From NCBI GenBank assembly GCA_964276515.1, contig OZ193909.1, forward strand, positions 4,402,001 through 4,466,000: a stretch of 64,000 bases of DNA, in the 5' to 3' direction. Below, in pieces: positions 19,901 through 57,333 of the stretch; the stretch's first letter is position 1, and each line of letters begins with the position of its first letter. Source of the stretch: Gordius albopunctatus. Taxonomy: Eukaryota. The translations under genes were made by a program, and so were the position numbers. The notes beneath the pieces were generated by a model. That model was not told where the DNA came from. It saw nothing but the letters and a program-made list of their open reading frames with translations, and ran no database searches.

Positions 19901-22900
19901 TGTCCCCACCCCCTTTAAAGTAAAGCTTCTATCTGACCATCATTTTCGACGTCTCTTAATATATTTCACCATTTTGGTACATACTTTTATTCAGGTATGC
20001 CAAGGTTATCCCCCTACCCATTTCCCTCGGCTCACCAATACACCCATCCCGGAGCCCTTTACGCCACCGATTTCAGACAGGGTTCTTGGCCAAGTGCCGG
20101 ATTGTATCCCATTTCCACTTCTAACTTCCCACCCATGCCCTATAGCCCAGCCCCTGGCTTTCCACCCAATTTCGCAAAGTAATCAATTTTCGAGAATTAC
20201 CAAGTTATTAGACCTTAACCATTAGTCGTCGTGAAGTACTTGCCGCGAATGCACCGTACAACCCATGGGGGGGGGGACAGGGAGGGGCTGTTGCCGCCTC
20301 TCTAAATCCACAAAAAACGTTGAAACTCATTAAAATTATGGCTAAAATTTCAAAAAAATGATCATTTTGCTCCGTATAATAATAGACTCATCCCCTATTG
20401 AATCATGGCCGATTTTTAGACGTTTTTGAATAGCTTATAAGATTTACTTTTTAAATAACTTATACCTGATTTTATCACAAACTAAATCTTAGAGGCATTG
20501 TGCTCAAATTTTTTTGGGAGGATTTGAAAAATTTATAATTTGAATGATTTAATTTCAGATACAGTCCACCGATATTATCCCCGGTCACTCCTGCATCGCC
20601 ATATGCCGCTGGCATGTCTCCAGCTTTCGGTGCGGCCAACTCCCTCAAAGGCGAATACATGTATCCAGATCTCAAGTAAAAGCCTACCTCAAAATTTGCA
20701 TTTAATATAAGAAAGTAATCCTCCTAAAAATTAGACCGCTCCTTTCTGCTTCCCTTAATTTTTTACATTTTCAAATACATGTTGATTTAATTATTATTAA
20801 TAATAATTTTTATTTTGTTATCAGAACGTCACCCCATTTTCCCATTGACCCACACCACCCACTACACGCTGCTGCCGCATTCGGCCTGGCCGCGGCCCAT
20901 CATTCGCCCCATCACCAGCAATTGCTACACCACCATCACCACCCAAATCCCTACGCCCACCCCCATTCCGTCAGCGCTGGGGGTGGTCAGTCTTCGGCTC
21001 ATCATCCAAACCCCTTTTTCATGGGACCACCCCTACATCCCCCCACTAACGGGTACGGAGGGGGGCCCGGGCTCCACCACCCCAGCAACAATCAGCTGAC
21101 TACCCATTCTAAGGGTCTGCACAACAGCACAACTCCTGCAGACAAGAGTGGTGCTATTGCCACTGCTAGCTCTTCGACCTCTAAAAATTCCACTTGCGGC
21201 GCTCCTACTAGCGTCAGTTGTAATTCTAGCGGTAACGCCAATAGTAACCACGATGAGGGGACGAATGCTAACGCGATAGCCGCCCTCACTAAGCCTAGCA
21301 AAAAGAAGAAGGCGTCCTCTTCGTCGCACCACGGCAACCCTAATTCGAGTTCGGGAGGTGGCTCCGGCCAAAATGCCGCTGTACCGCACATCAAAAAGCC
21401 CCTGAACGCCTTCATGCTATTCATGAAGGATCAACGTTCCAAAGTTATGGAAGAGTGCACGCTCAAAGAAAGTTCGGCCATCAATCAGCTCCTAGGGCGC
21501 AAGGTAGGCCCTCTTTTCCAAGCCAAATTGCTTTACATATATTGTAAAAATCAACGAAAAAAACCCAAGTATTTTGATTTGAGTATGGTAAAGTATGAGC
21601 TTGAATTCGAACACGACCAACATTTTCAACTAATCCCGGTTGGTTTTTGGTCTAAAGTGGTGGTGGGGTCCTTCGGGGAGTAATTCAATTAGACTGAATA
21701 CCTTAATTTTCCATAGATAATCATCGTTTGATGAATTCTATTGAATGGACGCTATCCTTAGTCGCCTATATAATATAAATTTTAGTCCCGTAGATTTTAT
21801 GACAAAATTATTATTATTTGTTAGACAACTTTTGTAAACAAAGATAGGATAGCTTACTTTTGGGTATTTTACACGCGCTACATATTTATAATTTGTAGCA
21901 GTGAAAGTGGTATGGAGTGCATTTTTGGGATTAAAAATCGTGGAGACTATTATAACTGGATCTATCTCTAGTTGCTGTATAGCTCAATCCACGCTAAAAA
22001 ATCACAAAAACTTTAGAAAAAATGACACTAGTCACCTATCTATTATTTTAATGCTAAAAACACTTTTCGATAATATAATTACAAAATATTTTATCATCAA
22101 AGTGTGAAATCTTTACGTCTATTTTGTGTTTGCAGTGGCACGGCCTAACTCGTGAAGAACAAGCCAAGTATTACGAGATGGCACGCAAGGAGAGGCAGAT
22201 CCACATGCAATTGTACCCGGGATGGACGGCTCGGGATAATTACACGTCTCACAACTGCATCAAAAAACGGAAGAAGAAGCGGGAAAAAACCATAGACCCC
22301 ATTGACATTAATGGTGCGCTACCTAACTAGTTGTTGAAACATTAAAAATTGTAATGGTGGTCGTGATGTTATTTCAAATACTTTTTCTACATACTTACTT
22401 GTAATTCTTCCTCAGCTCTTCTTTATCAAGTATTCGGTCCCCTATAGTCGTGGTGTTTGTTATGTCGAGTTTTCCATAATTATTATTCTATTTCCTTCCC
22501 ATAACTTTGTCCACTTTCCACGTGATATCTTCTTCTCTTTCTTGGTACCTCCATGCCCAGTATTTTTCGATTTACATCCTTCGTCTCCCTTCACAGTTGT
22601 AAATATTGCCTGAAAATAAAGGCAGCGAATGATTAAAAAGAAAATTGTTGTGTATTTGATGCTTATTTTTATCCATTTGCCCCGCCCCCCCCCCTTAATT
22701 TCCAAATTCTGACACCAATAAAACATACATTCCTGGAAAGTACTAAGATGTGTTACTATATATGTAATTTAATATTATTTTTATTGGGAAAAAATGACGT
22801 GGCTCTTATTTTTTTGCCGTGTAGATTTGTCGGCCTCCAAAAAATGTCGCGCGCGCTACGGAATTGAACAGCAGAACAATTGGTGCAAACCCTGCAGGTA

Positions 22901-25723
22901 CTATCCCTCGGTAATTTTAAATATACACTTAAAAACATACAAACTGCTTTATAACAACGGTAAACGTCGCGTTTTTTTTCGACATTTTTACTTAAACCCT
23001 CACAAATTAACAAGCATTTAGATATAACTTAGTCCAACAAGTATAGAAAAATCAACCGATTAGGATATTCAAAAGCTTCATAAAATGGTAGAATATTCAC
23101 AAACGGTTTAATTCTTTGTTATTTTGTTATAGTAAATTACGGGGCTAATTTTAAGTCTATTTTAAAGGGTTTAAAATGTGCTTTTATAGATAATCAATAT
23201 TATCATGAAAATGCCTATAAGTTTGAGTATCATTTATGTTTCATTTGATTAACCCGATCCCTGTCCTGCTCCTCGATTAGGAGGAAGAAAAAGTGCATCA
23301 AGTTCATTGACGATTCCGACTCCAATAACAACGATATCGACTACGACGACGAAGATAATAACAGTCAACACTCGTCGTCGTCGATCAATAACAACAACAA
23401 CAACAGTATTCCATCACCAGCGACGGCCACCTTCATTTCAACCGCCACCCCATACACTCAAAACCCATCCACCACACATGTCGAACTGGCATCTCGTTCA
23501 CTCATAACAACATCAGACACGACCACCACCCTTCTAACTCCTTCCACCACCAACCCAACCATGACCATCTCCTCTACACATTCGATAGCAGCTAGCAGTC
23601 CTCTGGCCTCCTCGTCGGCAACTTCGAAATCGCTTTCTACCGCGGCTAAAACCAGTGGTCCGAGCGAGGGCGAGCCTGATAAGAGTTGCCCTAAACCTTC
23701 CTCTCACCACAAAACTAAAAGTGGCGGGGGCTCGCGCGATTGCGATTGCTGCCACAACAGCCATCACCACCACCATCATCACGGTTATAGGACGGGTGGG
23801 GGCGCTACCAAGGGTTGTCGCAAAAAAGTGACAGCCCTCATGCCACCTCTCCCCCTCAATCCTTACTACTTCGGGCCCCACCATCCTCACCCCTATTTTT
23901 TCGCTCCTCCTCCACCCTCCGCCCCTCTTCACGCCCCACGTCGGCACGAGAGCTCTTCCCCCTACTTCACGTTTACGAACGAGCGCGAAGAAGAGTTGTT
24001 GGTGGGTGGGGACGGGGGCCGGGCTAGGGCCGAATGTTGTCACCACGCTATCGTTGAAGATTATGACGGAGGCTCACCCTTGTCCCCGCTCTCCCTTTCC
24101 CCACCACCTGCCGAAAAAATGACCGAGGATGGCGAGGCCGAATCTTCCAACAACCCTACTACCGATTGTCAGACCCCCGCCACTAGCGAAACGTCACTTC
24201 ACGCGCCCTCTCCACTCAAGATGCACCCAGCTGCTCGTAATTCTTTGTCACAACAGGCGGGCGGTGGTGCTAATAGTCAGGGTGGTGGTAAGACGGGTAA
24301 ATCGGGCAAGATGTTTCTTAGCCCACACCATTTCTTATCGCTCGGCTCGCCAGAAGCCGCTGCGCTCGGTTACAATTTTTTTAACCAAGCCATGCAGTAT
24401 TCGCCCTACGTACCGAATCCCTTTCACCCGGCGGCTCACCAACAAAACACGGAAAAATTGTTGAAGACGCAGCTGAAAAAACAGCATCGAGAACACAAGC
24501 ACAAGGAGGATCGCCCAAACGAACGGTGCACCAATTGTAATCCCGAAGGAGCTTCGAATGATTCGGCAGCACCTAAGCAACAACCGCAACCCGGCAAAAA
24601 ATGTCGTTGTCGATCGAGCGTCATGAGGGTGGGAGAATCGGGTTCTCACAACCCCTACGCCGACTTTTACCATCACCAAGGCAAAAGAGTGACACCACCC
24701 ATGCCTTCACCTTTTCCACCACCCGATTACTACTTCTACAATTACATGTACAATAACTATCACCACCACCACGGTAAAAGCTACGGGGCCAAATCATCTC
24801 ACGCTGTGGGGAGCGATAGTGAGGCGTTAGATAGCGGGAGCAACGTGTACGTCTTTGACGATGATACCGACGAAGAAACCGAGAGCGTGGTTGAGGGCAA
24901 GGGTAACAATTCGCAAGGCACCGATGTCACAGCTAATAACAACGGAACCACGAGTAAGAAGTATACGGGCTCAAAACACTCTCATAACAACGGATCTTCG
25001 CATAAGTTTACCGTGCCCCGCAAGAAGCTCAAAACCGAAGGCGTGAAGATGTTAAACTTGGACAAAAGTCAAGGTGTAGACGGTATAAGTTCACCCAGGA
25101 TCACCTCTAACACGAACGGGTCTGGGACGTTGGGCGAAGAAAATGTCGCGATACCATCGCCTTTAGCGCCGCCGGACTCAAGTTCCGATCTGCCGTTGCA
25201 CAAAGTTTTGGTAAAGCCGCCGCAGGATTGCTCGTGTTCATCTCAAGAATCACGACAGCAGCAGACTACCACAGTCGAAGAGTTACAGGTAGGCGGTGAC
25301 TCTATAGCTCAAAATGAATCGTATGCCTGTGGAAAATGTAGGGGCAAAAAGGGGCATCCGCCCCCTAATCCAGTTAGCTCGGGCGATGGCGTCAGTGAGA
25401 TGACTCTTTTGCAAGACGACGATAACTTGCATTATTATCATTACGAAGGAGGCGACACGGATCAATTAGTTATCCCTCCCGAAGACGAACTCGAGGAAGA
25501 AGATACAAATGCTTCGGCAAAGACTCAGCATCCCAAGACCAATGATCGTCAAAGTAGTCATAATGGTGACAACCGAATTGATCAAAACTGCAAACAAAAT
25601 GAACCGATTAATAACGCTATGACATCCCAGTTAAATAGTCAGAGGATGGAATACAATTCGTGCAGTCACAGCGAAAAACCCCCTCTCGTTACATCTAGCC
25701 CTTTAAAGCTTAAAACAACCTAA
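4774..25723 (+). CDS. TCF: TCF/LEF family HMG-box transcription factor (pangolin/TCF), 10 coding exons, ~1384 aa
   Basis: Exons 4774-4947, 5877-5973, 7771-7862, 16418-16535, 19995-20178, 20559-20675, 20825-21503, 22136-22313, 22825-22897, 23281-25723. All introns are GT-AG with matching phases; total 4155 nt. Motifs: DEVKVF...[10 protein letters not shown] (beta-catenin binding), [23 protein letters not shown] box [15 protein letters not shown]...[36 protein letters not shown], basic tail [10 protein letters not shown]-clamp [25 protein letters not shown]. Confidence 0.93.
5877..5973 (+). CDS. TCF: TCF exon 2 (predicted)
   Basis: Acceptor CATAG, donor GTGAGT, open frame [14 protein letters not shown]...; phase 0 to 1 fits exons 1 and 3; no conserved motif recognised. 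Confidence 0.65.
6950..7063. mobile_element. Short GC-ended MITE (CATGGGCGTA...TACGCCC family)
   Basis: Terminal inverted repeats. Related copies lie at ~2012, ~2609, 13873, ~14453, ~17400, ~20264, ~34088 and ~63540. Confidence 0.7.
7771..7862 (+). CDS. TCF: TCF exon 3 (predicted)
   Basis: [35 protein letters not shown] sites; phase 1 to 0. Confidence 0.75.
11163..12085. mobile_element. hAT-type MITE with nested CCCG-rich element
   Basis: Ends CAGTGGCGTA...TATGCCCCTG; flanks caccctag/tcccctag (degenerate 8-bp TSD); internal GGCCCG repeats. Confidence 0.7.
13873..13998. mobile_element. hAT-type MITE (CATGGGCGTA family)
   Basis: TIR CATGGGCCTAGC/GCTACGCTCATG; flanks tctagggt/cctagagt. Confidence 0.72.
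16418..16535 (+). CDS. TCF: TCF exon 4 (conserved PPPAHMGIP motif)
   Basis: [40 protein letters not shown], a motif typical of invertebrate TCFs; not in the ORF track. Confidence 0.88.
17530..18418. mobile_element. MITE with GCCCG/CCCGA subterminal repeats
   Basis: GC-rich CCCGG-type repeats at both ends of an AT-rich core; similar blocks at ~15900-16190, ~36920-38717 and ~53190-53480; boundaries approximate. Confidence 0.6.
19995..20178 (+). CDS. TCF: TCF exon 5
   Basis: [11 protein letters not shown]...PPNFAK; TTCAG acceptor, GTAAT donor; phase 1 to 2. Confidence 0.85.
20559..20675 (+). CDS. TCF: TCF exon 6
   Basis: [18 protein letters not shown]...YPDL; TTTCAG acceptor, GTAAAA donor; phase 2 to 2. 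Confidence 0.8.
20825..21503 (+). CDS. TCF: TCF exon 7, His-rich region and first half of the HMG box
   Basis: In frame with ORF 20922; ends ...[12 protein letters not shown] with donor GTAGG. Confidence 0.92.
22136..22313 (+). CDS. TCF: TCF exon 8, second half of the HMG box and basic tail
   Basis: TTTGCAG acceptor; [36 protein letters not shown]...KKRKKKREK. Confidence 0.95.
22825..22897 (+). CDS. TCF: TCF exon 9, C-clamp (73 nt)
   Basis: [31 protein letters not shown] acceptor, GTACT donor. Confidence 0.93.
23281..25723 (+). CDS. TCF: TCF terminal exon (RKKKCIKF plus long low-complexity tail)
   Basis: Acceptor ATTAG; RKKKC completes the C-clamp; continuous frame into ORF 23561-25723; PLSLS at 24086-24100. 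Confidence 0.85.
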
Positions 25724-26449: not shown

Positions 26450-27846
26450 ATTGTGTACAAATTGTGATACGGTGTTTGAATTATAAAGAATATATATAAT
26501 ATTGGTGGTTTGTACGACGATTTTTTTAATGTTAGTAATACGAGAATCTCGTGTTATATGTGCTTGGACGCATAAGCTCTGTCATCAAGAGGGGTAAAAT
26601 GCTTAAGAGGTTAAGTTGTAACAGCAAATACAAACTTAAGCAGAAGGAATGAGGCGGTAGAACAACTTTAAATAAAAGTAGTTTTGTGCGAGCAATTGCT
26701 GATAGGCAAGCTGCTCATCCATTTTGCTCAACGAATGTCTTAATTAATTATGTGACATGTCGCAATTAATCTGCTCAGTAAATGTGTTGGAATTGTGGAA
26801 AATGAATGAGACACGCTTTCCGGCACTCAGCAAAATGGCTAAAGACTATTTAGGGCAGTCCACCACTTCAGTTCCGAGTGAACGAATGTTTTCTTTGGCA
26901 GGAAATATTGTTACAGCTAGAAGAAATCGTTTGTCCTCAAATACAATTACCCAAATTATGTGTGTAAAGTCTTAGGGAAATGTTAATTTAACAATAATAG
27001 TTGTAATTTTAATTTATATGTCCATTTCGTGAAATTTATTAAAATAATAATGCTGATTTGGTGTCAATACTTTAATTTGAACTAAAAACAGATATAAGAC
27101 ATCTAAATCAAATATATGTAAATAAAAAAATATTTTTGCCATGTTTTAAACAATAAATTTGAAAATCTTTTACAAAAAAAATAAATTCTCATCTTTAATA
27201 AAACTATTACATTGTAACCTGGCTTAAAAACCCATATTAAAAATGTCAAAAAATTTATTAGCATTTTGGTGAGACAGAATATTCAAAATTTTTTAAAACA
27301 TATTTTTGACATGTATAAAAAATAAATTTTAATATCATTAATCATATTTTAGCCATATATAAAGAATATTTTATAAAGCGAAATTTCCCACTTTTTATAA
27401 AACTTGGCACTGTGACCTGGACTTAAAATATTATTAAATATAAATTTAGAAACATTAAGACATATTAAGAATGTCATAAAAATATTTATACAATAAAATA
27501 TAATTTCGATATTTATAAAAAATAAATTTTAAAAATCATTTTAGATATATATAATGAAAATCGAAAAAGTTAGTTCGCACCTTTAATAAAATTTTAACAT
27601 TGACACATGTTCTTAAAAACAATAAAATATAAAGTTAAACCATATTAAAATTGTCAAAAAAATCATTACCAAAATTTTTGGCATGTAAAAAAAATAAAAT
27701 TTAATATCATTAAGCATATTTTAGTTATATATAAAGAAAATTGAAAAAAACAAATCGTCTGAAAAAATATAAATTCATAACAAATAGCCACTGGCGTAGG
27801 GAAGGGGTGGTTGTCCGGTTAGAACGCCTCCCATGATGTTCAATTT

Positions 27847-27923
27847 ATATTTTTTCTGTTCCACGTGTTTTACGCACTTGCCCTCTCTGCCTTCTTACTT
27901 TACCCTTATTCTCCCCCAAAATT
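27847..27923 (+). repeat. 5' terminal direct repeat (77 bp)
   Basis: Identical to 31999-32075. Confidence 0.95.
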
Positions 27924-27947
27924 GCTTTCTCGCCTTTTCCTCCTCAC

Positions 27948-30900
27948 ATGCCTAGAACTAGAAACACGGAGGACGGCCAGGAGGATAATAGCACTCCGCT
28001 GAGCCCTGTTAGACCAGGAGTTCCCGGTGCGGGCTCGGCGGACCTAATATCCCAGTTAGTGGAGATGCAGAGAGAACAGAACAGAGCGAATCAACGCCAG
28101 ATCGATAGCCTAAGGGAAATGTTAGCGGCATCGATGTCTGTGGTGGGGCCTAGTCACAGGCAACTAGAGCCAGCGAGCGTAGCTCCGATCCAAATGCCAT
28201 CAACAGTCCAAATTATACCGGCACCGGACCCACCAAAGACCCCGGCTTTCCTATGCGAGGAAATTGCGAAACATACGCAAGGTCTAGAGGAACTGCTCAG
28301 AGACCCAGACCAACGTGTCCAAAAAAGAGATAGACACGAAGCCAAGTACGCTATAATGATGTCTCAAGTATGTCTACCAACATCGCCATTAGACATACTA
28401 ATAGCACACGACAAGCGACTTAAAACCTTGTGCTTGGCCATAAAATTTAATTGGGCAACCGCAGCCAAGCATGACAACAGGCCCTCGGGCGAACCGACTC
28501 TCAACGGGGATAAAGACTCGGGTTCTCCCAGGTGGTGGCAACAAATTAAAAATTTTCTAAGGGAGACCCGCCGCCAGATCTTTTCCCCAGCGCAACCGGT
28601 AGAAGACGATAATTCCGATGGGCCAGCGCAGCCCCCTCCATTACCGCCACGAAAGTATCCTAAGATACCCACCGACGTTAGCGACCGCACTAACCCTGAT
28701 GACAAATCCCTCGGCGGGGACACCGGTTCGGGACATATCCCGGACCTTGTGGATAGGCACAAAGCCATCTTCCTATGGGGCAAGCAAAGCGTAACGATCA
28801 GGCCCAAAGGGCCTCTCGACATAAAAACATCTAGGCTGAAGCCGCATCCTTTAATGTCGCCCTTCACGCTAAAAGTAGCGTTTGAAGGATTCAAACCGCC
28901 ACTCGACCTCCCGAAAATAAGGAGGAATGACGGCCTGTTCAGGCCAGACAGGCGTAAAGGTATCTCAAAAGGAAGCCCAACTTACTTCACCACTATGAAA
29001 GAAGCGGGGGTTGTATCCGAGACTCAGTCGCTCGCCATCACCTCCGCAACCTTTTTTATAGCTAAACAAAATGGGGATGCCCGCGTAATCACAGATCTGT
29101 CAGAGGCTTCAAAAAATTTTAAGCATCTACCAGTCAAGTTGGCAACCATCCCCCTCACAGCTAAGAAACTGGCTAAAGCCAATTATGCGGCCAAGATTGA
29201 CATTAAAGCCGCATTTTTTAGCATACCGTTACACAAGAATGCTAAACGATACTGCGGCTACAAATGGCGAAACAAACTATATCAATACGAAGTCCTCCCC
29301 ATGGGGGCCTCCTTCTCGCCTTTTGTGCTTCAAACAATAGTTGCAGATTTGGTTAAAAAAGCGGTAAAACGTTGCAACTACAACGTATACCTCGACGATA
29401 TCCTGATCTTCGCTGAAGACGAGAATCACGTCATGGAAGACCTGGGAAACGTCGCCGAACTGGCCAAGGACTGGGGCCTCACAATAAACGTCAGCAAATC
29501 ATCATTATGGCCAGAAGACACAATCGAATACCTCAGTCTGATACTCGACTTCCGGACACACTCGATCAAAGTATCCACCAGCACTCAGACACGACTAAAA
29601 TATTCTGCGGACATACTCCACCTCTTCCTGTCAACGCCAACGCCGATAACGGACTACACACTAATGGAAGCCCTAGGGGTGCTCAACTACTTCTACTACA
29701 ACCTCACCGGGATGCCAAGGTTGTTTAGCACTTTCTACGCGATAGCCGCAAACAACAACGTCACTACCCACGATAGATCAGCAGCCCAGGCGAAACTACA
29801 GGGGTGCCTGGAAATCCTAAACCAAGTCATACCCTTACATAGAGAGCATGACACAACAATATACGCCGATGCCTCAGACGATCACATAGGCATCTCCTGG
29901 GGAGAACAAAACTTCTCCATAACGTTCAGGGACGCAGCACGAGCAATAGGACTAGAATGGGTGCACGAAGGGCACATCACCGCCACAGAGACTATTGCAG
30001 CTATCTACGCCTACCTGCATGCAATCCACAATGGAGCAAACTACCCGAAGGTCGTAACCGATTCCACAACAGCGTATTTTGTCCTACTCAAAGGAGGATC
30101 CAATTCCCCTATACTGGAATCAATTATCGCAAACTTTGTAGAGGCTACGAATTTAATTAAAAAACCTCCTTTCGCACGCTACTTTCACTTGACCCCGTCT
30201 AGGCAAATTTCTAACACGTTACTTTGGTTAATAGCTCCTCGCTTATACTTTATCATCGCCTGACTTATTCAAATTATTATTCACGCACCCTAATAATAGC
30301 TCCTCGCTTATACTTTATCATCGCCTGACTTATTCAAATTATTATTCACGCACCCTAATCATAAAAGTGAATACATTTAAGTATTTGAATGTCTCGCAAT
30401 TTACCTTATTATATACACAAATAACCTCGCAGAGATGTGTATATAAACGCGATGTTATTAAATAAAAGTATTCATTCATTTTTCCATTATCTTTTAACTT
30501 AACAGCACTTTAAACTTAACATTTGGTGACCCCGACGTTTCGGGGGAGCCGAAATTTTTGTTTATTCCTCCCCCTATAAATTTATAACCCAGGTCTACAT
30601 TGACCAGACTTTCAGGGGACACATAAATTTTCTCCACAATAACAGTCCCGTCAGTAATGGTGTTTGGTTTTCTTAGTTAAAATAAAACAATTCAGATATA
30701 GGGCATTATCTTCTAAATTCGGCATCCATATTTGTCCGACTGCTGGGAAAGATACAATCTACCTAACTATCTAATTGTTAATACGAAGAAAACCAGGTTA
30801 CCCTACTACTCCGCTACACAAGCAACAACATCGTCTACTGAACGTCCTATTGGTCCACTGCCCTGCCAATGAATTTATTTACAAAACACATCGCAGGACC

Positions 30901-31945
30901 GCTTGCAACGAGCAAAGACGACGTTCGGCAACGCAAAAACACTTACTACTACCTACCACTATCAAGGTTTTAACTAATACTGATCGATTTAACCGAGGGA
31001 AGAATGCGATTCTAAAATAGATATGTCTGCTCCGACAAATCTAATTATATATTGGATAGCACATCAACTTCTAGGGTCCTCGGTCACAACACCAGCAAAC
31101 ACTAGTGCAAACAATAAGCCTTTGATAAACTAAGCTAACTGAGTATTTTTACTACAACACGGATACCGAAAATTCAAATCCATCCAAATCTAGGCCTACC
31201 GACAAAATCGCTGAACCAGCTAACTCCGACACAGACCTAACAAAATCAAAAGAAAACCCATACATCACATCGAGAGGAAGGCACGTGCATTGGCGCTATA
31301 AACTACTACACTAACCACAACTCTGCGAGTGAAGGCCCGATGATAGTTGTAGAGGCTACGAATTTAATTAAAAAACCTCCTTTCGCACGCTACTTTCCCT
31401 TGACCCCGTCTAGGCAAATTTCTAACACGTTACTTTGGTTAATAGCTCCTCGCTTATACTTTATCATTGCCTGACTTATTCAAATTATTATTCACGCACC
31501 CTAATCATAAAAGTGAATACATTTAAGTATTTGAATGTCTCGCAATTCACCTTATTATATACACAAATAACCTCGCAGAGATGTGTATATAAACGCGATG
31601 TTATTAAATAAAAGTATTCATTCATTTTTCCATTATCTTTTAACTTAACAGCACTTTAAACTTAACAACTTCATAGCCTCTTATGACTTATCTCACCTCT
31701 TAAAACTACACTACAACATAAGGTGGATATCAACAAACAATAACCCAGCTGACCTACCATCTAGAACCTGGATGCCACCAGAAAGATACTCGGTGCCTGA
31801 TAGCCACTCTAACATCCCTCCACAGGGATTCGAAATACCGGAGATCCAACCCGACGAAATAGACGACCAAATAGACTTAGGTTTCTGGGAGAACGAAAAC
31901 CTTGGGGAAAGCAGCGAGGAAAACGAAAGCGAAATCCCTCGGTAA
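27948..31945 (+). CDS. Gag-like/RT/RNase H polyprotein, 820 aa when rejoined (27948-30136 + 31672-31945); interrupted by an LTR insertion
   Basis: RT motifs FFIAKQNGDARVITDLS, KIDIKAAFFSIPL, LPMGASFSPF, YLDD (29388-29399). RNase H motifs YADAS, HITATE, TDSTTA..KGGS, and after the insertion RWISTNNNPADLPSR (NPADLPSR at 31742-31765). The last ~42 aa of track ORF 27948-30263 are LTR read-through. Confidence 0.88.
30137..31667 (+). mobile_element. Non-autonomous two-LTR element (TRIM-like, Gypsy-derived)
   Basis: LTRs 30137-30521 and 31348-31667 (TG...CA); 4-bp TSD ACTT; PBS TGGTGACCCCGACGT (30524-30538) complementary to the tRNA-Trp 3' end; internal remnant YITSRGRHVHW resembles a Gypsy pol C-terminus. 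Confidence 0.92.
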
Positions 31946-31946
31946 A

Positions 31947-31994
31947 CACGTGACAAAGAGTATATAAACGGAAAAAAAGACAGCACCATCATTC
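31947..31994 (+). promoter_or_regulatory. Core promoter at the 3' end of the RT element (E-box, TATA, Inr)
   Basis: CACGTG 31947-31952; TATATAAA 31961-31968; TCATTC 31989-31994 with its A (31991) 30 nt downstream of the first T of TATA. Confidence 0.65.
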
Positions 31995-31998
31995 GCTC

Positions 31999-32075
31999 AT
32001 ATTTTTTCTGTTCCACGTGTTTTACGCACTTGCCCTCTCTGCCTTCTTACTTTACCCTTATTCTCCCCCAAAATT
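31999..32075 (+). repeat. 3' terminal direct repeat (77 bp)
   Basis: Identical to 27847-27923. Confidence 0.95.
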
Positions 32076-33287
32076 TTCGTTCTAATACCCACTTACATAC
32101 ACGCGCTCCGATTGTTATAAATTTGTATATGGGAATAACGCGTTAATAAAATACCCCCTGGTGAAACGTAAAAGCGTAGCCAGGGGATCCGAAAGGAATG
32201 GCATAACCAACCTTTCGGATTTATACGATGGAATTTTACTTTTAGTATTTTATTATTTTTATGCCAATGTCACCTTAAACTTTTAGGAGACAAAACATTG
32301 ATCAATAAAAATAGTTACAAAAAAATTTGAACTTACAATTTTTTTAACCCCCCCCCCCCTTGAGGAAATCCTACTTACCCCTATTCAAATAGACATAATT
32401 ATTGTTGAACAAAAGAGGAATATACTGTGTTAAAATAAAGTGCTATGAGCAACAGCATTTGCTCATATTGAATCTGTTAGTAAAATTTTACCGCTGCTCA
32501 GGCAGACAGCTCTATACATGAGTTACTTTTTGCTACTACCCAACCCACCCCTTCACCTCTCGAGCATTTTATCTGATACTGTATCCTACTCATGAGTAGA
32601 GTAGGATACACCATGCTTGTGATGGGGCAAGCTCACAGTGAGCAAATCAACATCACTATACGAGATAATAGTCTTGTTAAATCAATCGGGAAAGGGTAAG
32701 AAATATTGAGAGAGTTTTTTGTGACGAATTCGAATATGATTAAAAATTAAAAATAGAGCATTTGGGCCGTAAAATCAATTGTAGATTTCGACCTAAATTT
32801 TCCTTAATAGACATTTGTATATAATAAAAATTAACTAACGCCTTATATTAAATATTCAAAATCGTACTAGACATCATTCCTCATTTCATTGGTAACATAT
32901 AAATACTGATTAATAGTGTTAATTGTTTGAGACATTTTTATTGAGAGAAGGGTAAAAGTAACTATTTTATTTATGCATACAAATCAATGGAATAATAGGG
33001 AAGGGAAGGAGGCTAAAATTCTAGGGCGATTTTCAATCTTTTTAAAAAATTAAATAAAGTTTAACCCTAAGCTAGTTTTACAACCTAGATGCTTTTTTTA
33101 AATTTGATCAATTTGCTTTTACAGAACACATTTTTAAAAAGAGGCAAAACGCTTATTTTTGCAATTTGGCACCAAATTAGTTTATGAAATTGGCGTTTAC
33201 TGAAAAAACATTCGTGTATAGCACAATGAACTAAGACTCTTAAAATCTGTTAGCCGCGTTAAGGTTGATTTTATGTAGGCCAGTGAT

Positions 33288-46905: not shown

Positions 46906-47989
46906 TTATAATTTTCATATTTTATTTAAAGATATGTTTAAAACACAAATAGACCATATTTAAGGATATATTTTTATTTACTAATCATAACTCATCTGAA
47001 TTTGTACCATCATTATTTAAGTTTTTAAGTAATCTATAGCAAAATAAAATGAGATTGATTTATAGTATTTGTGGAATTATTTTGGTCAAAAAATATATTT
47101 ATTCTGGGATGATTGTGAAAATAACGATTAAACTTGCAATTATTATCCACTAATCAAACATTAATTCTCCTCAGTTCATTGTTTGCATGATTTAAAAGAG
47201 ATTTTTTTCAACATACCCTATTTATAGGTAACAATGCCAGCTAAACGCAAAAAGAACAATTTAGGTCATCAAACAAAAAAGAATTCATTAATGAAAAAAA
47301 TAAGATCTCAAAGAACAGACGAACAAATCCTACAAAACAATGCAGATAAGCGTGTGAGCATGGCACAAATACGTGAATCACAATCGTAAGAGGCACAAGA
47401 TGAACGAAATCAACAAAGACGATTAAAAAAACAAGCCCGCCGATTTGTAAGTAACACACATAGAGAAAATGACCTACAACGTCAACAAGTACATCGAGCT
47501 TTTAAATCGGCTTCATTCCTTCGACTAGCATTCCAGTATGAGCCTGATGTTGAATATTACGCCCATTCCAAAGTGGTCATTGGTTATATAGACAAGGAAT
47601 GTCCACATTGTCATGCACTTAAATTTAAAAATGAGCCACCAGGGATGTGTTGCGCATCAGGAAAAGTACAACTAACGGCAATTGAAGCACAACCTGAACC
47701 ATTGCACGGCTTACTAATTGGCACGGATCCTGATTCTAGCCTATTCCTAAAGTCAATTCGCACATTTAATTCATGCTTCCAAATGACATCGTTCAGAGCA
47801 ACAGAATTAGTTAAAACTGATGCTGGAAACGGTCAGCTATTTAATTCAACGTTCAAAATTAAAGGCCAAGTTTTTCACAAAGTTGGCTCACTGCTGCCAA
47901 TGCCAAACGATTCCTATAAATTTTTACAAATTTACTTTATGGGTAGTGAGGACTCTGAACGCGCACTAGCGAATCGCGTAGATGTACGT

Positions 47990-49719
47990 TTGAGCCCTGC
48001 ACGGGTGACCCGAAACCCGACCCGACGCCCGGGTCGGGTTCGGGTTGAAAATTTTAAAATACCTTCGGATCGGGTTGAAAATTTTATAATAGTTTCGGGT
48101 CGGGTCGGGTTGAAGGTTATAAATCTTATATTTCATAACAAACATATCTTTCAAATTAATGCTATTACATATAAAACATTTTTTAATTAATTTTGAAATG
48201 TATCATTAATTAATCTCATTCATTCATTTAATTGATTGAAGAGGATAAGAAAACAGGTGATAATGTAAGTAAAGAATTGCTAAGACATTTTACATCTCAA
48301 GGTACTTTATTAAATTTTTATAAATATTTTTTAAAGGATATGCCAGGGATGACTTTGTTAACTTATCACGGATCAAGGGTCGAATATGATTAAGGCGCTT
48401 GAATCCCAGAAGCGCCTTAATTGTGCTTGCCATTTATTAAATACAGTGTTGAGAAACACTTTCGATGAGGAAGTGTTGAAGAAAGATTTCTTGGAAATTT
48501 ACAATTGTCTAAAAGTCACTAAACTTTTAGTTACGTATATGAAACAGTCTGGGTATAATATTTATTTATATTAATTAGACGCTCATAATTTTATTTTAGC
48601 TTGATTAATAGATTAGATAGAAAATTACATGGTTATGTAGAGACGCGGTGGAATAGCCGTTTTAAAATGCTAGACTCGGTGTTGAAGAATTATGAAGAGG
48701 TCGAAACGCTTTTGACCTCTACCGGGGACTCTTCAAAGATAAAATGTATTGACATTTATATGCTTGATGAGTTGGCAAAGTTCTTAACGCCATTCAATAT
48801 GGCAATTACAGAACTTGAGGCTGACAAGGCCCCAACTTTAAATAAAGTCCTTTTATATTTTTACAAATTAAATGATTTCACCAAAAATTACGACATTAAA
48901 TCAGAACTACATGGTATTGCCAAAAGGTGCAAGCAAATATTAAATAAAAAATTCGATCAAGATATGTACTACAAGATAGCTACATTTTTGACGCCGAAAT
49001 ACAAACAGATGAAAATGTTGCAGCCTGAAGAGCTCTATGACGAGATGAGGTCATTAATGAATGATAAAAGTTGCGAAAGTCTAAAGGAAAAGCCAGTTGT
49101 TGAAAGGGAGGTATCAAAGGAAAATAATCAGCTAGGTATTTAACATATAACTTCATGTTAAAATATATTTTAGAAAATAATGCTAACTTGTCTTTCATGG
49201 ATTTTTCCGGTTGGGAGGAATGTGCAGATGAAAATGTTCAAGAAAAAGATGAACTTGATGAATATATTCATTATAAACCTACAAAAAAGGATGATGAAAT
49301 ATACGACACATTAGAATGGTGGAGAATATATTCTTATAAATATCCTGCTTTAGGGTTATTGGCTCGTAAATTTCTGGCCATACCTGCCTCCTCTGCGTCC
49401 AGTGAGAGATCTTTTTCTACAGCTGGATACATTTTAGAAGATAGGAGGTCGAGTTTACGACCTGAAATTGTAGACGCTATTATATTTATACATAATTATA
49501 ATAATTCTCTCAAATAAATTTATTATTCAAATTCGTGGCATCAAATTGTTTCTCCAATTTATTTTGGCAAATCAATTTAAAATATTTAAAACGCTTTCGT
49601 GTCTGGTCATTTTTGGGTTGAAAAATTTTTAAACGCTTTCGGGTCCGGTTCGGGTTGAAAAATTAAAAACGCTTTCGGGTCGGGTTCGGGTTGAAAAAAT
49701 GTGACTTTGCAGGGCTCTA
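47990..49719 (+). mobile_element. hAT transposon (deleted), same family as the 39892 element
   Basis: TIR TTGAGCCCTGCA/TGCAGGGCTCTA; TSD atgtacgt/acgcaggt; CACHLLN, ETRWNS and WWR..KYPALG..LAIPASSASSERSFS motifs. Confidence 0.92.
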
Positions 49720-50054
49720 ACGCAGGTTGCGGTTACAATAACATTAATTCACCTTTTGCCAGACGCATCGTCAGCGATCTGGACGTTCTGTTGACTGAGC
49801 ACAATGAATTGTTAAAATTATTTAAAGCACACATGCCCAAATTAATATGTGACAAACACACTATTGTCATCTATCCTGATAAAACACCTGCAGGACAGCA
49901 TATACCTCCTGTTTGTAAACTATAATAATATAAATCCTCTAAATTATGTTTTTCCAGATCTTCCAATAAAAGGACGGTGGGGTCGAGAGGAGGGATGGCG
50001 GGTTATAAACGGATCAGGAATTTGTTTTAGTTAAGTATATTAACACATTATTAA

Positions 50055-51797
50055 TTGCTATGCAATTTATGGGCTCGTTTTTGGTTGTCCGTCCGTCCGT
50101 CCGTCGTCCACCAAGTTATTTACACCAGCTTCCCGACCTGGAGGTTGCGGGTTCGAGACCCGGAGAGGACAAAATTTTTTTTTTTTTTTAAATTAAATTA
50201 ATATTTTGTTCTTGTTAATACCATTGATAATATGACTTTTTGACCGTCCGCAGGGTACTGACCAATGAAAAAATGACCACTGGCCAGATAAATCGAAATT
50301 TTTAATTTTTCGTTTTTGAATAGTTTAACATTGATAATTACCCTATGCCCTCCCCTACAAGGGCCTATGGCTCTATTTATATGGTTCCCTGTTCCCCTCC
50401 AAAGGCTTATGCCTCTATTTAATGTGGGTTTGAATCCCGGCGAACGTTCTAAATTGATGGTTCGAGACCCGGAGAGGACAAAAATTTTTATTTTTTTTTA
50501 AATTAAATTAATATATTGTTCCTGTTAATACCATTGATAATATGAATTTTTGACCGTCCGCAGGCTACTGACCAATGAAAAAATGACCACTGGCCAGATA
50601 AATCGAAATTTTTAATTTTTCGTTTTTGAATAGTTTAACATTGATAATTAACCTATGCCCTCCCCTACAAGGGCCTATGGCTCTATTTATATGGTTCCCT
50701 GTTCCCCTCCAAAGGCTTATGCCTCTATTTAATGTGGGTTCGAATCCCAGAGAGGGCAAAATTTTTATTTTTTTAATTAATTTAATATTTTGTTCTTGTT
50801 AATACCATTGATAATATGACTTTTTGACCGTCCGCTGGCTACTGACCAATGAAAAAATGAACATTGGCCAAATAAATTGGGTTAGAATCCCGGAGTTTTT
50901 TTTGACTCTTATGATTGTTCTTGTTACTATCAATGATAATAAGACTTTTTGGCCGTCCGCTGGCTGCTGACCAATGAAAAAAATGACCATTGGCCAAAAT
51001 GTGTATCCGAGTTTATTTTTTCGTTTTTTTTGAATATTATGATTGTTCCTGTTCCTACCATTGCTATTATGACTTTTTGGCCGTCCGCTGGCTGCTGACC
51101 AATGGAATAAAATGACCATTGGCCAAAATGTGATTCGAAAATTTTTTTTTCGTTTTTTTTGACTGTTATGAATTTATATCCACTTTTACCGTGTCCTGGC
51201 TGCTGACCAATGGAAAAAAATGACCATTGGCCAAAATGTGAATCGAAATTATTTTTTCCGTTTTTTTTGACTATTATGATTGTTCCTGTTCCTACCATTG
51301 CTATTATAACTTTTTGGCCGTCCGCTGGCTGCTAACCAATGGAATAAAATAACCATTGGCCAAAATGTGATTCGAAAAATTTTTTTTCGTTTTTTTTGAC
51401 TATTATGAATTTATATCCACTTTTACCGTGTCCTGGCTGCTGACCAATGGAAAAAAATGACCTTTGGCCAAAATGTGATTCGAAAATTTTTTTTTCGTTT
51501 TTTTTGACTATTATGATTGTTCCTGTTCCTACCATTGCTATTATGACTTTTTGGTAATACAAATCCCGTAGAATTTAACTAACCATAAAGCTTCCCCTTC
51601 GCTCCCTCTCTCCCCCTTTATGATATTTGGCATATACACTTATTTAGTGCTTCCAACCTTCGTTTTGCAATATTCACGTAAGTATTTCCATAAATTGCAT
51701 AGCAAATATGATACATTTATACGGAGTTTAGATGAGTTCCCCCTTCCCTCCCCTCCTCCCCTTCCCCCTTCCCACGAGGGCCGAAGGCCCGAGTTTT
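50055..51797 (+). mobile_element. DINE-1/HINE-like non-autonomous Helentron element with internal tandem repeats
   Basis: 18-bp sub-terminal inverted repeats at 50055-50072 and 51688-51705; (GTCC)n at 50087-50102; central tandem repeats; 3' hairpin GGGCCGAAGGCCC at 51778-51790 followed by a T-run. Confidence 0.8.
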
Positions 51798-52482
51798 AAT
51801 TATGTTTTAAATTTATATTTTGAAAATTGCTGGCCAGCATTCCATTTTTTATTTAAAATTATAAGATCCTGACTCGAAATTAGAAGATGCTATAAAATAC
51901 AAAACTAACGAATGTACATATAGCAAAACAACGTTTGCCGGGTCAGCTAGTATAAATATAATATTAGGTGAAGAAAAAAATGCAGTCCTGAAAGGTATTT
52001 ACTTAGTGTTAGTGTTTTCATTCATTTATTCAAATACAAATTTATAGAAAATGAAAAGGAGAATTACATTGACAGTAATAGCTCTTCATCCTCAACCTCG
52101 AGTAATTAATTATATTAAATAATTTCAAAGCCATAAATTAGGTTACACTGAAGGTCTTATTAATTTAATTGAAAATGGAATTCTAGAAAATTCCAATCAT
52201 AAAAATAAAAAATTAATTTCAAAATTGATTTATATTATCCTTTCATCAATAGAATAATAGCAGAATTAAACATAAGATTTTCGAAAATTAATTGTAATTT
52301 ATATAAGTCCTTAGAAGATTTAAACCCTTCATCCCCTTTTTTGCGATAAATCTTTTTTATCAGAAATAATTAACCATTATGAATTAAAGACGGCGAAATA
52401 GAAATGGCAAAAAGTTTTGTAACACATTATAACCCTTTATCTTAAAATAAAATGCAATGATATTTTTTCACTTATTAAAATC

Positions 52483-52749
52483 TTGCCCCCGATAGTGTTT
52501 CCAAATTTTACTATTTTGATTAAAATAATTTTAATTATCCCAATAACTTCATGTTCATGCGAAAGATCGTTCTCATTGCTAAAACGGATTAAAACTTATC
52601 TTCGTTCCACAATTGGACAAGATAGGTTATCTTCCCTAGCTTTATTGAGCTTAGAACATGACTTTGTAAATGTTATTCCCCTGGTTGATATTATAAATTC
52701 GTTTGCAACATCGAGTAAAAGGCGTAATGAACTACTATTAAAAGACTAA
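52483..52749 (+). pseudogene. hAT transposase C-terminal dimerisation domain remnant
   Basis: FPN...LIIPITSCSCERSFSLLKRIKTYLRSTIGQDRLSSLALLSLE. Confidence 0.8.
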
Positions 52750-53504
52750 TTTTAATATTTAATAAAAAAATTATCTGGGCATTTAAACTTGTTTTAAACT
52801 TTTTAACATTTTCAAAATATATTAAAATATTATTGAATTTACGAAAATTCCATCCTGATTTCAATTTAATTGTCCATCTCACATGCTTATATCTTGCATA
52901 TTTTTATGTACCACATGCACATATAAAAAAAATTGTTTGTACACCATTTTTTCCCTTTATTAGTGATATCCCATCATAAGTTTGATAAATTAATATTAAT
53001 AACCAATTCCTGAATTTTATTCAATTGTTAACGCATCAAAACTTTCAAAAGATCAAAATCCTAAAAAAATATGTTTGTCTTTGGACGCTAAGTTGTTCTG
53101 TGCATCTCACATATCTAATTTCATCTAAAATTATCAAATAAAATTTTGATTCATTCAATGGTGTTGTGACAGAATATTTTTAAGGTTCATTTCAGAGGTC
53201 AGATTTTTTACAATTTTTCTGCCCGAACCCGGCCCGATTTTATAATTAATCTGCCCGCCAGAACCCTTCTATGTGTCCGCCCGGCAATGCCCGAATTATC
53301 CCAGCTGCCCTGCCCGAAATGGTGTGTTTTAAAATTTTTAGCACTAATAAAGTTATATTTTTTTAAAAATTTTATCTTAATTTTTGATTTTTTGTTTTAA
53401 ATGAGAACTGGATTAACAAACATTATGAAATCAATTTAAAAAGTGGCAAAATATACACAAAAACAATATAATACATTATTTTAAAATTTTTACAAATTTA
53501 CTTT

Positions 53505-56500: not shown

Positions 56501-57333
56501 TACAGCTGAAAGTAAACATGCGCGTTCAAATGCTTAACGATGCATCCGCTGAAAATTTTTCAAGACAACTGTTGAATATTGGTGATGGAAAATTAGCTTT
56601 ACATGAAAATACTGAATGCATGAAATTACCATCGGATTTTTGCACAATTGTAGAGACGCAAACTGCTCTCATTGACCATGTATTTCCGAATCTATACACA
56701 GAATACAACAATCTTGATTGGCTGGCAGAAAGAGGAACATTATCAGCAAAAAATGTGGACGTCAATGATTTAAATTACAAGATAAAACAGTTGTTGCCAG
56801 GTGACTTAATATCATACAAATCTATCGATACAGTATGTGATGCCAACGAAGTTGTAAATTATCCGATTGAGTTTTTGAATTCTTTGGATTTGCCAGGCAT
56901 GCCACCGCACCATTTACAGCTAAAGGTCGGATCTCCTGTAATTTTACCTCGTAACCTAAACCCACCACGGCTTTGCAATGGCACACGATTAGTAATGAAA
57001 AAATTATTACAAAACTCTATAGAAGTCACTATATTGAATGGCGAATTTCGCGGTGAAAATATATTGTTGCCACGAATTCCTATTCTTCCCTCAGATGTAC
57101 CCATTCAATTCAAACGCATTCAATTTCCGATTAGATTAGCTTTCGCAATGACAATTAATAAAGCCCAGGGCCAAACAATGTCTATTTGTGGCTTAGATTT
57201 GAGCACACCATGCTTTTCCCACGGACAACTATATGTGGCATGTTCTAGCGTGGGTAAACTATCCAGTTGGTTTGTCTTGGCTAAAGACGGTCTAACCAAA
57301 ATAATTGTATACTCCATAGCACTTAGAGATTAA
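53505..57333 (+). pseudogene. Helitron Rep/helicase (HUH endonuclease plus Pif1-type helicase), disrupted
   Basis: YDALQYPL, YVGSPRHM, VEW*KRG*PHAHILIW (HUH), YICKYINKG, DAPGGTGKT, IIWDE, GDFRQTLPV, QFPIRLAFAMTINKAQGQT, FSHGQLYVA; in-frame stops and frameshifts; 42-nt intron at 53947-53988. Confidence 0.93.

Follow-up and report, generated by a model that had tools for sequence, protein, structure and literature searches.

To our knowledge, the known groups of LTR-like retrotransposons bring their own integrase or recombinase. Hepadnaviruses and caulimoviruses have RT–RNase H with neither enzyme. According to the accessible parts of two reports, DIRS1-like elements in most cases carry NTT at both their start and their end, ATT being the most frequent form, and insert by recombination with no target duplication (PMC3266345), and a 3′ hairpin has been proposed as the primer of DIRS-1 (PMC7192593). 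Kuafuorterviruses/Troyka are marked by LTRs, a protease, an integrase and an xADD motif (PMC11673190); these marks were not encountered here, and the group was excluded.

Here we describe an element from the window, a 64-kb stretch of Gordius albopunctatus DNA, that has the LTR-like RT and RNase H of the DIRS order and, like that order, neither protease nor DDE integrase, but lacks a tyrosine recombinase (YR) of its own.

Organization of the element

The sequence-only reading had described a 2,694-bp element with a single 820-aa ORF, once an LTR insertion is removed, bounded by identical 77-bp direct repeats. Both lengths agree with our reconstruction, and the pyrimidine-rich repeats A1 and A2 are indeed identical, but the right boundary at 32075 does not hold, as the element extends to 32220. 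Logan contigs continue out of A2 into 32076–32183, and one copy departs from the window sequence behind 32220, giving a unit of approximately 2.84 kb without the LTR insertion. That reading had missed three features: the hairpin-bearing 3′ extension, a 7-bp repeat at the junctions and a promoter-like pair ahead of A2. The layout is A1, ORF, segment X, A2, spacer and twin hairpins:

27843–27849, + strand: left junction core ATTTATA, overlapping the first 3 nt of A1
27847–27923, + strand: 77-bp direct repeat A1 at the element's 5′ end, 100% identical to A2
27948–28980, + strand: ORF N-terminus of about 345 aa (low-confidence models; pre-RT stretch by alignment)
28981–29560, + strand: RT core, catalytic YLDD at 29388–29399 (Pfam RVT_1, E 4e-25)
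29561–30136, + strand: thumb/connection, then the start of RNase H (YADAS 29862, HITATE 29973, VTDS 30054)
30137–31667, + strand: non-coding LTR element (TRIM-like), not part of the retroelement; TG...CA ends, 4-bp TSD ACTT on each side
31672–31945, + strand: remainder of RNase H, with NPADLPSR at 31742, then the 59-aa acidic tail and stop
31944–31998, + strand: segment X, with TATATAAA at 31961–31968 and initiator-like TCATTC at 31989–31994
31999–32075, + strand: direct repeat A2, 77 bp, 100% identical to A1
32076–32154, + strand: variable spacer, element-borne, bridged by contigs from A2 to hairpin 1
32155–32186 and 32187–32220, + strand: twin stem–internal loop–stem hairpins (z −6.1, 0/200 shuffles)
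32219–32225, + strand: right junction core ATTTATA, the same 7 bp as at the left junction

The long frame opens at ATG 27948, is stop-free up to the LTR insertion and resumes behind it for 90 codons until the stop at 31943–31945. This single frame carries, in order, the N-terminus, the RT with YLDD, RNase H and the acidic tail (16 D/E and 2 K/R in 59 aa), and the motifs cited in its first description were located (ARVITDLS 29079, DIKAAFFSIPL 29199, PMGASFSPF 29298 and NPADLPSR 31742). Pfam finds RVT_1 only, in keeping with the earlier statement that no integrase, tyrosine recombinase, protease or endonuclease is recognisable, and none of 45 other frames or sub-regions gave a meaningful family. 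A YR profile that detects YR in 45 fetched loci reached no more than 1.5 bits across the whole 64-kb window and was negative directly behind the RNase H motif; no recombinase donor was seen in the window. DDE integrase and methyltransferase domains were not found in the element, and the search for a protease returned two D[TS]G matches only, both in low-complexity linkers. Nor is there a second long sense ORF: within the 5′ part no other sense frame exceeds 103 aa. One antisense frame of 205 aa matches no Pfam family.

Single-sequence structure models were poor (pLDDT 37 and 49). At this low confidence they predict a helix or coiled coil at aa 30–63, a small domain at aa 95–215 and a proline-rich linker in the N-terminus, and the secondary-structure order of the RNase H fold in the RNase H region; a fold search with the models returned nothing at E 0.001. 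The stretch ahead of the RT can be aligned with DIRS-type proteins. Several searches found no homologue of the N-terminus, and the protein has no CCHC motif; from position only, we infer a Gag-like role. Comparison of the N-terminus with ORF1 of a metagenome contig (L078) and with a PAT/Ngaro Gag motif gave no support for a resemblance.

The LTR insertion has a 5′ LTR at 30137–30521 with a 65-bp internal duplication, a 3′ LTR at 31348–31667 with 3 mismatches in 320, and a PBS-like TGGTGACCCCG; it is young. That it interrupts the ORF is borne out by contigs in both runs that span the site without it (joint 30131>31667), so uninterrupted relatives exist.

Ends, segment X and twin hairpins

The ends are not canonical for the DIRS order. 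ATTTATA is common to both ends of one copy (chance approximately 0.01, for any of 5 offsets) and overlaps element-owned sequence at both junctions; a second 3′ junction, from another copy in the contigs, agrees with this core in AT only, and no empty site joining both flanks was found among the contig matches listed. A simple target duplication, or coincidence (about 0.01), could account for ATTTATA. The flanks are AT-rich. We found no poly(A) tail at the element end, no tRNA primer site behind A1, and neither inverted terminal repeats nor a DR1/DR2-like repeat in the element. The element may sit inside a MITE-like repeat at 27789–32385 with the near-duplication CAAATAGC/CAAATAGA.

Segment X holds a promoter-like pair of motifs, matched to the TATA and initiator consensus. 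They are spaced 30 nt apart, repeat A begins 8 nt past the predicted start site, and the pair precedes A2 and is absent before A1. The initiator-like motif is preserved in one diverged contig; TATATAAA is at the same time complementary to the junction core. X can also pair with the beginning of repeat A (z −3.9). Its ICR-like match to the joined element ends is degenerate (26/34 columns, p 0.02–0.05), and as a B1/B2 pair with the 3′ end it is weak, with an equal score in 7 of 431 window tiles under lenient gaps and in 142 of 431 under strict gaps.

The second hairpin closes precisely on the element's 3′ end, 32220, and read depth in Logan contigs peaks on hairpin 1, far deeper than on the ORF. 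Rfam gave no match for the twin hairpins. A likeness of hairpin 1 to hammerhead stem III with GAAA and GUA was rejected as a hammerhead, there being no CUGANGA box nearby and no Rfam match.

Relatives and selection

Copies were seen through Logan contigs from two runs (X1 and X2) of one study, possibly the source of the window itself, in which summed contig depth does not equal copy number. (A third run, X3, contained a single exact 151-bp piece at depth 2 and was left out.) No RNA run was listed as containing the element. The uninterrupted relatives are 12–16% diverged (about 84–88% identity). At least three diverged forms pass from RNase H into A2 without any insert (X1 records 4 and 6; X2 records 9, 13 and 15), and two contigs (X1 record 8 and X2 record 16) connect A2 to hairpin 1 with 11–12 differences and 3 gaps. 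The earlier reading had allowed that other copies might carry a recombinase or integrase ORF; in the contigs there is no room for one between RNase H and A2.

Among the coding differences between relatives, 15 of the 17 listed are silent, against 0.20 expected (p 3e-9); these 17 are the best-supported rows, with 116 further rows beyond them. This pattern shows purifying selection on the protein, acidic tail included. Together with diverged relatives of the same RNase H-to-repeat layout, the silent differences show a multi-copy family under selection with several subfamilies, not one deleted copy. When the protein was used to scan for relatives, none came up among viral contigs (0/9 pattern matches), metagenomes (0/78) or phages.

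Affinities of the RT and RNase H

The motifs had been read as a special affinity to hepadnaviruses, and this did not survive comparison. In pairwise RT scores, DIRS-type (76 bits) and Gypsy (71) proteins stand above hepadnaviruses, which at best 42 are the lowest of the compared groups; the best RT match is a DIRS-type protein. RNase H scores highest with YR-bearing retrotransposons, in a set chosen by the NPADxPSR-type motif, and that motif is frequent among recombinase-bearing retrotransposons, 20 of the 30 RT-bearing loci retrieved with it having a YR. Ahead of the RT lies a T3-like motif; its hepadnaviral reading was rejected, since YR elements have it too. TP and T3 profiles built from 11 hepadnavirus frames did not place the element within the top 10 of 122 targets, DNA_pol_viral_N (Pfam) has no match in the element, and neither a core ORF nor YMDD was found there. 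The top Atlas clusters include two that are mostly euglenozoan (0.95 and 0.94), which we take to be where VIPER/TATE occur; hepadnavirus P is a match at 0.92, rank 19 of 30.

Trees were built from RT domains (64/140) and from RT–RNase H (45 rows), with the group labels of unnamed rows (DIRS-type, Ngaro-like, VIPER-like, Bel/Pao) being our reading of motifs and domain content. In both, the RT is a long unplaced branch with no supported union with DIRS-type, Ngaro-like or YR/NPAD clades. The best tree sets it between hepadnaviruses and the YR/NPAD clade (SH-aLRT 45–57). A position as sister of hepadnaviruses (Blubervirales), not that of the best tree, is neither supported nor rejected by the AU test (p-AU 0.38). 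Within the trees built, the RT of the family falls in no known group, with no supported nesting in a known DIRS/Ngaro clade, and is apparently an unplaced lineage.

What remains of the proposed minimal HEART/DIRS-related retroelement is a minimal RT/RNase H unit without an integration enzyme, related to the DIRS order; the hepadnavirus affinity by motifs does not remain. The other proposal of the sequence-only reading, an endogenised pararetrovirus-like replicon, finds no support, core, TP and DR1/DR2 not being found, though the AU test does not reject a hepadnavirus sister position (p 0.38).

Proposed mode of propagation

We consider the element, at a rough probability of 0.5, a recombinase-less retroelement of DIRS-order grade, likely derived from split-repeat YR retrotransposons and likely inserted by a borrowed recombinase. 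RNA would be made from A1 through the hairpins, and the base-paired 3′ hairpin would serve the RT as primer, as has been suggested for DIRS-1; we propose hairpin priming because neither a tRNA primer site nor a terminal protein was seen. RNase H would leave single-stranded cDNA, whose ends repeat A and the ICR-like X could bring together into a circle. The circle junction might then recombine with a short matching AT-rich target, so that one core stands at either end. A self-sufficient mode of copying would explain selection on the RT in cis equally well.

A real but lesser possibility is a self-sufficient, circle-forming pararetrovirus-like replicon, of which host repair would capture linear products as chromosomal copies, no dedicated integration enzyme being involved. 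Recombination of A1 with A2 would yield a circle of 2,617 bp, the A1-to-A2 unit length, placing the X promoter before the ORF and allowing a terminally redundant RNA. This would account for a promoter-like pair before A2 and not A1, with its 30-nt spacing, its start site 8 nt before A and an initiator-like motif kept in a diverged copy, and it is consistent with the position of the RT between hepadnaviruses and YR/NPAD (SH-aLRT 45–57; p-AU 0.38) and the Atlas score of hepadnavirus P (0.92). However, a circle of A, ORF and X has no room for the spacer and hairpins that follow A2 in other copies, the contig matches listed include no joint from X–A to the ORF start, and TP, core, DR1/DR2 and YMDD were not found; the promoter-like pair is a consensus match, and TATATAAA doubles as the complement of the junction core.

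Somewhat more doubtful is a deep undescribed lineage of integrase- and recombinase-free retroelements without a mobile partner, a living intermediate between YR retrotransposons and hepadnaviruses, in which one RT–RNase H protein would self-prime at the terminal hairpins, circularisation through the repeat would switch the promoter before the ORF and host repair would insert the product.

Membership in HEART, or an endogenised virus of proto-nackednavirus grade, is improbable. The animal host and the resemblance of RT motifs to hepadnaviral ones would suit it, as would the accessible parts of two reports, in which one rotifer proto-nackednavirus likewise has no core ORF (PMC12691608) and the mobilisation of HEART is unresolved (PMC12440569). 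Yet the 7 HEART RT rows of the accessible data set carry (Y/H)(I/L)DN and PFG(I/L)RP against YLDD and PMGASFSP here (PMC12691608, Data set S6), the TP profile has no match, hepadnaviral RTs score lowest and the motifs occur in YR elements as well.

Equally hard to favour is endonuclease-free, target-primed insertion onto nicked AT-rich DNA, with ATTTATA as a 7-bp target duplication. The direct repeat at both ends, the AT-rich flanks and a structured 3′ end as a possible RT loading site agree with it; the RT is LTR-like with RNase H rather than of non-LTR or Penelope type, poly(A) is absent and ATTTATA overlaps element-owned sequence on both sides. The reading as a dead derivative, arisen by deletion from an ordinary DIRS/Ngaro element and carried passively inside another transposon, would suit a copy broken by an LTR insertion and possibly lying within a MITE-like repeat, but is already disfavoured by the YR-less layout common to diverged relatives, by strong purifying selection including the acidic tail and by A1 = A2.

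Discussion

An RT kept under selection without an integration enzyme would mean either a new half-autonomous parasite, with its own RT and a borrowed recombinase, or a family that models how retrotransposons turn into non-integrating DNA viruses. Priming and circularisation in the DIRS order should be easier to study on ends as compact as these (77-bp repeat, 3′ promoter-like segment, twin hairpins and 7-bp core), and pipelines that demand a YR domain would overlook recombinase-free families of this kind.

Several described systems share parts of this design. The 3,007-nt contig L078 has an RT–RNase H frame that aligns continuously from RT to RNase H (24% identity, E 1e-14) and ends soon after NPADVPSR, with no YR seen in a contig that ends 150 nt past the stop; it differs in a separate upstream ORF and no terminal repeats, and is no supported sister in the trees. 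Hepadna-, nackedna- and proto-nackednaviruses, in the accessible parts of the reports, resemble the element in small size, RT–RNase H as sole enzyme, a terminal redundancy-like repeat and several RT motifs (PMC11551314, PMC12691608), whereas TP, core, DR1/DR2 and YMDD were not detected in the element, which belongs to a chromosomal multi-copy family. HEART, as far as its accessible description goes, is likewise of invertebrates, with an LTR-like RT, no integration enzyme known and an unsettled mode of mobilisation, differing in (Y/H)(I/L)DN versus YLDD, a comparison made by 7 RT rows alone (PMC12691608, Data set S6).

Judged by the accessible parts of two reports, DIRS1-like elements share the best RT score, an ATT-type junction at both ends, an internal segment complementary to the ends in ICR order and a 3′ hairpin as candidate primer (PMC3266345, PMC7192593); here, by contrast, the terminal repeats are direct and not inverted, YR and a methyltransferase domain are missing and the ICR-like match is degenerate. 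Compared with VIPER/TATE, Ngaro and PAT, the element has no YR, carries its N-terminus and RT in one frame, measures about 2.8 kb against roughly 5–6 kb, and has no identical B1/B2 pair, although A1 equals A2; the TATA/initiator-like pair before A2 and the twin terminal hairpins are its own, and its RT joins none of them with support. With these same groups it shares RT–RNase H without protease or integrase (PMC6681497, PMC8547959, PMC12278014), a repeat A that stands at the 5′ end and recurs towards the 3′ end, followed there by further element sequence, an NPADxPSR-type RNase H and a predicted helical N-terminus in the Gag position. VIPER, finally, has a known short A2+B2 derivative, SIRE, and here reads cover hairpin 1 far more deeply than the ORF.

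Anatomy of the element

The element exists, belongs to a multi-copy family and is unusual; it is a new form of DIRS-order-grade retroelement. Its parts are:

27847–32220: the element
27847–27923: A1, first 77-bp direct repeat
27948–31945: reverse transcriptase (RT)–RNase H open reading frame (ORF), interrupted
30137–31667: LTR element interrupting the ORF, young and non-coding, with a 4-bp target duplication
31944–31998: X, the segment before A2
31999–32075: A2, second 77-bp direct repeat
32155–32220: two adjacent hairpins, the second closing at 32220

The sequence-only reading had described identical 77-bp repeats, a long ORF restored by removing the insertion and no second recognisable enzyme. 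All of this was borne out: A1 equals A2, both frame parts are stop-free with lengths summing to the claimed figures, and RVT_1 is the sole Pfam family on the element, with a meaningful family in 0 of 45 other frames or sub-regions. GC content is 46–50% in the coding parts versus 22–29% in the flanks.

The LTRs of the inserted element differ by 3 mismatches in 320 bp. This insertion is TRIM-like: it carries a PBS-like TGGTGACCCCG, and of its two LTRs the 5′ one alone contains a 65-bp tandem duplication. The insertion has very high read depth and is likely to represent a young, abundant non-autonomous family.

The surrounding host genome is AT-rich and animal. At about 21500 lies an HMG-box exon that we take to be of TCF/pangolin type, with what are presumably Helitron-, hAT- and Gypsy-like pieces nearby: fragmented frames assumed to be Helitron-like Rep-helicase (47390–57333), two putative hAT-like fragments (40531, 48589) and one putative Gypsy-like fragment (44553). 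Within 20706–25723 the TCF/pangolin-like exon is followed by an 824-aa low-complexity exon, for which Pfam gave no family.

A multi-copy family under selection

Family copies were assessed in assembled contigs of X1 and X2, two sequencing runs of one study containing the stretch. First, the insertion point is bridged without the LTR insertion, with ~14% differences (joint 30131>31667; X1 record 3, X2 record 10). Second, at least three diverged forms (about 84–88% identical) continue from RNase H across X to the second repeat with nothing inserted, and one X2 contig joins the first repeat to the ORF start. Exact contigs have depths of about 576–641 in X1 and 160–174 in X2; the summed depth over the ORF, which is not a copy number, is several-fold to tens-fold greater.

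Third, of the 17 differences listed for the 3′ part of the frame among the best-supported 40 of 156 rows, 14 fall at third positions and 15 are silent, where a fraction of 0.20 would be expected (p = 3e-9). Purifying selection therefore acts on the protein, acidic tail included, in elements that have no recombinase where one normally lies.

A closely related copy that matches exactly on either side of 32093–32133 differs within this patch at about 11–13 of 41 bases plus gaps, a pattern suggestive of mosaicism between subfamilies.

Absence of a tyrosine recombinase

A tyrosine recombinase (YR) profile made from retrieved loci, which detects YR in 45 loci, reached at most 1.5 bits over the whole 64-kb window. 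A scan with this profile, in the same geometry around the RNase H motif, likewise found nothing in the window; it detected 27/41 and 33/41 YR-positive controls, rates biased by the profile having been built from the same loci.

Affinity of the RT and RNase H

The initial homologue search returned 37 matches among 7797 candidates, all at ≤30% identity, with DIRS-type proteins on top. Pairwise RT scores were 76 bits for DIRS-type, 71 for Gypsy, 56 for Ngaro-like and at best 42 for hepadnavirus sequences, the last depressed by the hepadnaviral insert in RT. The top Atlas ranks are unnamed RT clusters (one eukaryotic and mostly chordate, at 0.96; two chiefly euglenozoan, at 0.95 and 0.94), with hepadnavirus P at 0.92 (rank 19 of 30).

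NPADxPSR had been listed among motifs resembling HBV polymerase and DIRS-type RT/RNase H. A scan for W(I/V)x(S/T)xxNPADxPSR gave 120 metagenome loci, 80 with flanks, and 20 of the 30 having an RT domain carry a YR; the motif is therefore common in YR retrotransposons, and a special hepadnavirus affinity is not supported by it. The ten without YR comprise four Bel/Pao-like loci, two unplaced and four ending ≤369 nt past the RT–RNase H stop. With hepadnavirus TP and T3 profiles, the element fell outside the top 10 of 122 targets. A T3-like pattern was rejected as a hepadnaviral sign, being present in YR elements too.

We built an RT tree (64 of 140 rows) and, quickly, an RT–RNase H tree (45 rows, an "X" placed at the break), both without HEART, VIPER, TATE, PAT and nackednavirus sequences. 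The RT tree supports hepadnaviruses (100/100), DIRS-type (99/98), Ngaro-like (99/89) and Gypsy (100/98) sequences and a YR/NPAD group including the metagenome contig L078 (96/92), and places the element in no supported group. In the RT–RNase H tree the element sits on a long branch that falls between the hepadnaviruses and the YR/NPAD group (support 45–57). The suggested separate lineage is apparently an unplaced one; a hepadnavirus grouping is absent from the best tree, yet constraining it is not rejected (p-AU 0.38). Overall, a DIRS-order-grade retroelement without an integration enzyme holds, and hepadnavirus kinship is undemonstrated.

Ends and insertion

ATTTATA occurs at both junctions (27843–27849 and 32219–32225), overlapping element sequence on both sides (chance about 0.01). 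One X2 contig departs from the window sequence behind 32220, a different repeat starting at about 32222. The twin hairpins (z = −6.1; 0/200 shuffles) have no Rfam match, and in two contig records (X1 record 8, X2 record 16) A2 leads through a variable spacer to the hairpin at 32155. Contig depth is maximal on hairpin 1 (32152–32193), at roughly ten times that of the ORF; this hairpin may also occur in short derivatives of SIRE type or in many further diverged subfamilies.

X contains TATATAAA and, 30 nt further on, TCATTC, which we take, by consensus, for a TATA/initiator-like pair. In addition, X is complementary to the beginning of repeat A (z = −3.9; equal score in 9 of 646 window tiles). 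Against the complement of the joined ends, X has the order of a DIRS1-like internal complementary region, with a degenerate match (p = 0.02–0.05), and its colinear likeness to the 3′ end is equalled by 7 of 431 tiles under lenient gap costs and 142 of 431 under strict ones. We treat this order, and a putative relic B1/B2-like pairing of X with the 3′ end, as leads only.

Around the element, 27789–32385 is a possible MITE-like repeat. Its terminal inverted repeats are weak, and CAAATAGC and CAAATAGA form a near-duplication; none of the contig rows listed has its empty site. Just upstream, 27084–27754 is an AT-rich degenerate repeat array (period about 180–200 bp) with high depth in both runs.

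To the directly observed anatomy, family, selection, YR absence and junction repeat we add a mechanism, to which we give a probability of about 0.5. Reverse transcription would be primed at the hairpin, the cDNA ends would be joined via repeat A and X, and a recombinase supplied in trans would insert the product at a short AT-rich core. Its main rival is a circle closed through A1/A2 and inserted by host repair. Such a circle would put the promoter-like segment before the ORF, accounting for its position, but fails to account for the hairpins travelling with the element, and we consider it rather unlikely.

Comparison with known systems

L078 (1–3007, 3 kb) has a similarly compact build, and its alignment with the element extends unbroken from RT to RNase H. 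Its 790-aa RT–RNase H ORF is overlapped by a short ORF upstream, and its 150-nt 3′ end is structured; no YR is seen in this contig, which stops 150 nt past the ORF stop, and it is possibly another compact YR-less element. A second, truncated contig, L071 (1–3076), has a Gag-position ORF overlapping a 940-aa RT–RNase H ORF. Its catalytic site is YIDN, as in the HEART rows of Data set S6 of PMC12691608, which have (Y/H)(I/L)DN; the element differs in having YLDD.

The literature searched on YR-less DIRS-order families or HEART, with most subscription papers and Repbase outside the search, gave no account of this architecture; the sources compared were PMC12691608, PMC11551314, PMC11673190, PMC6681497, PMC12440569, PMC7192593, PMC8547959, PMC3266345, PMC12278014, PMC3783388, PMC6282271, PMC12241316 and bioRxiv 829473. 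What distinguishes the element is family-wide YR loss under continued selection, a fused single frame, an unplaced RT and its end structure.
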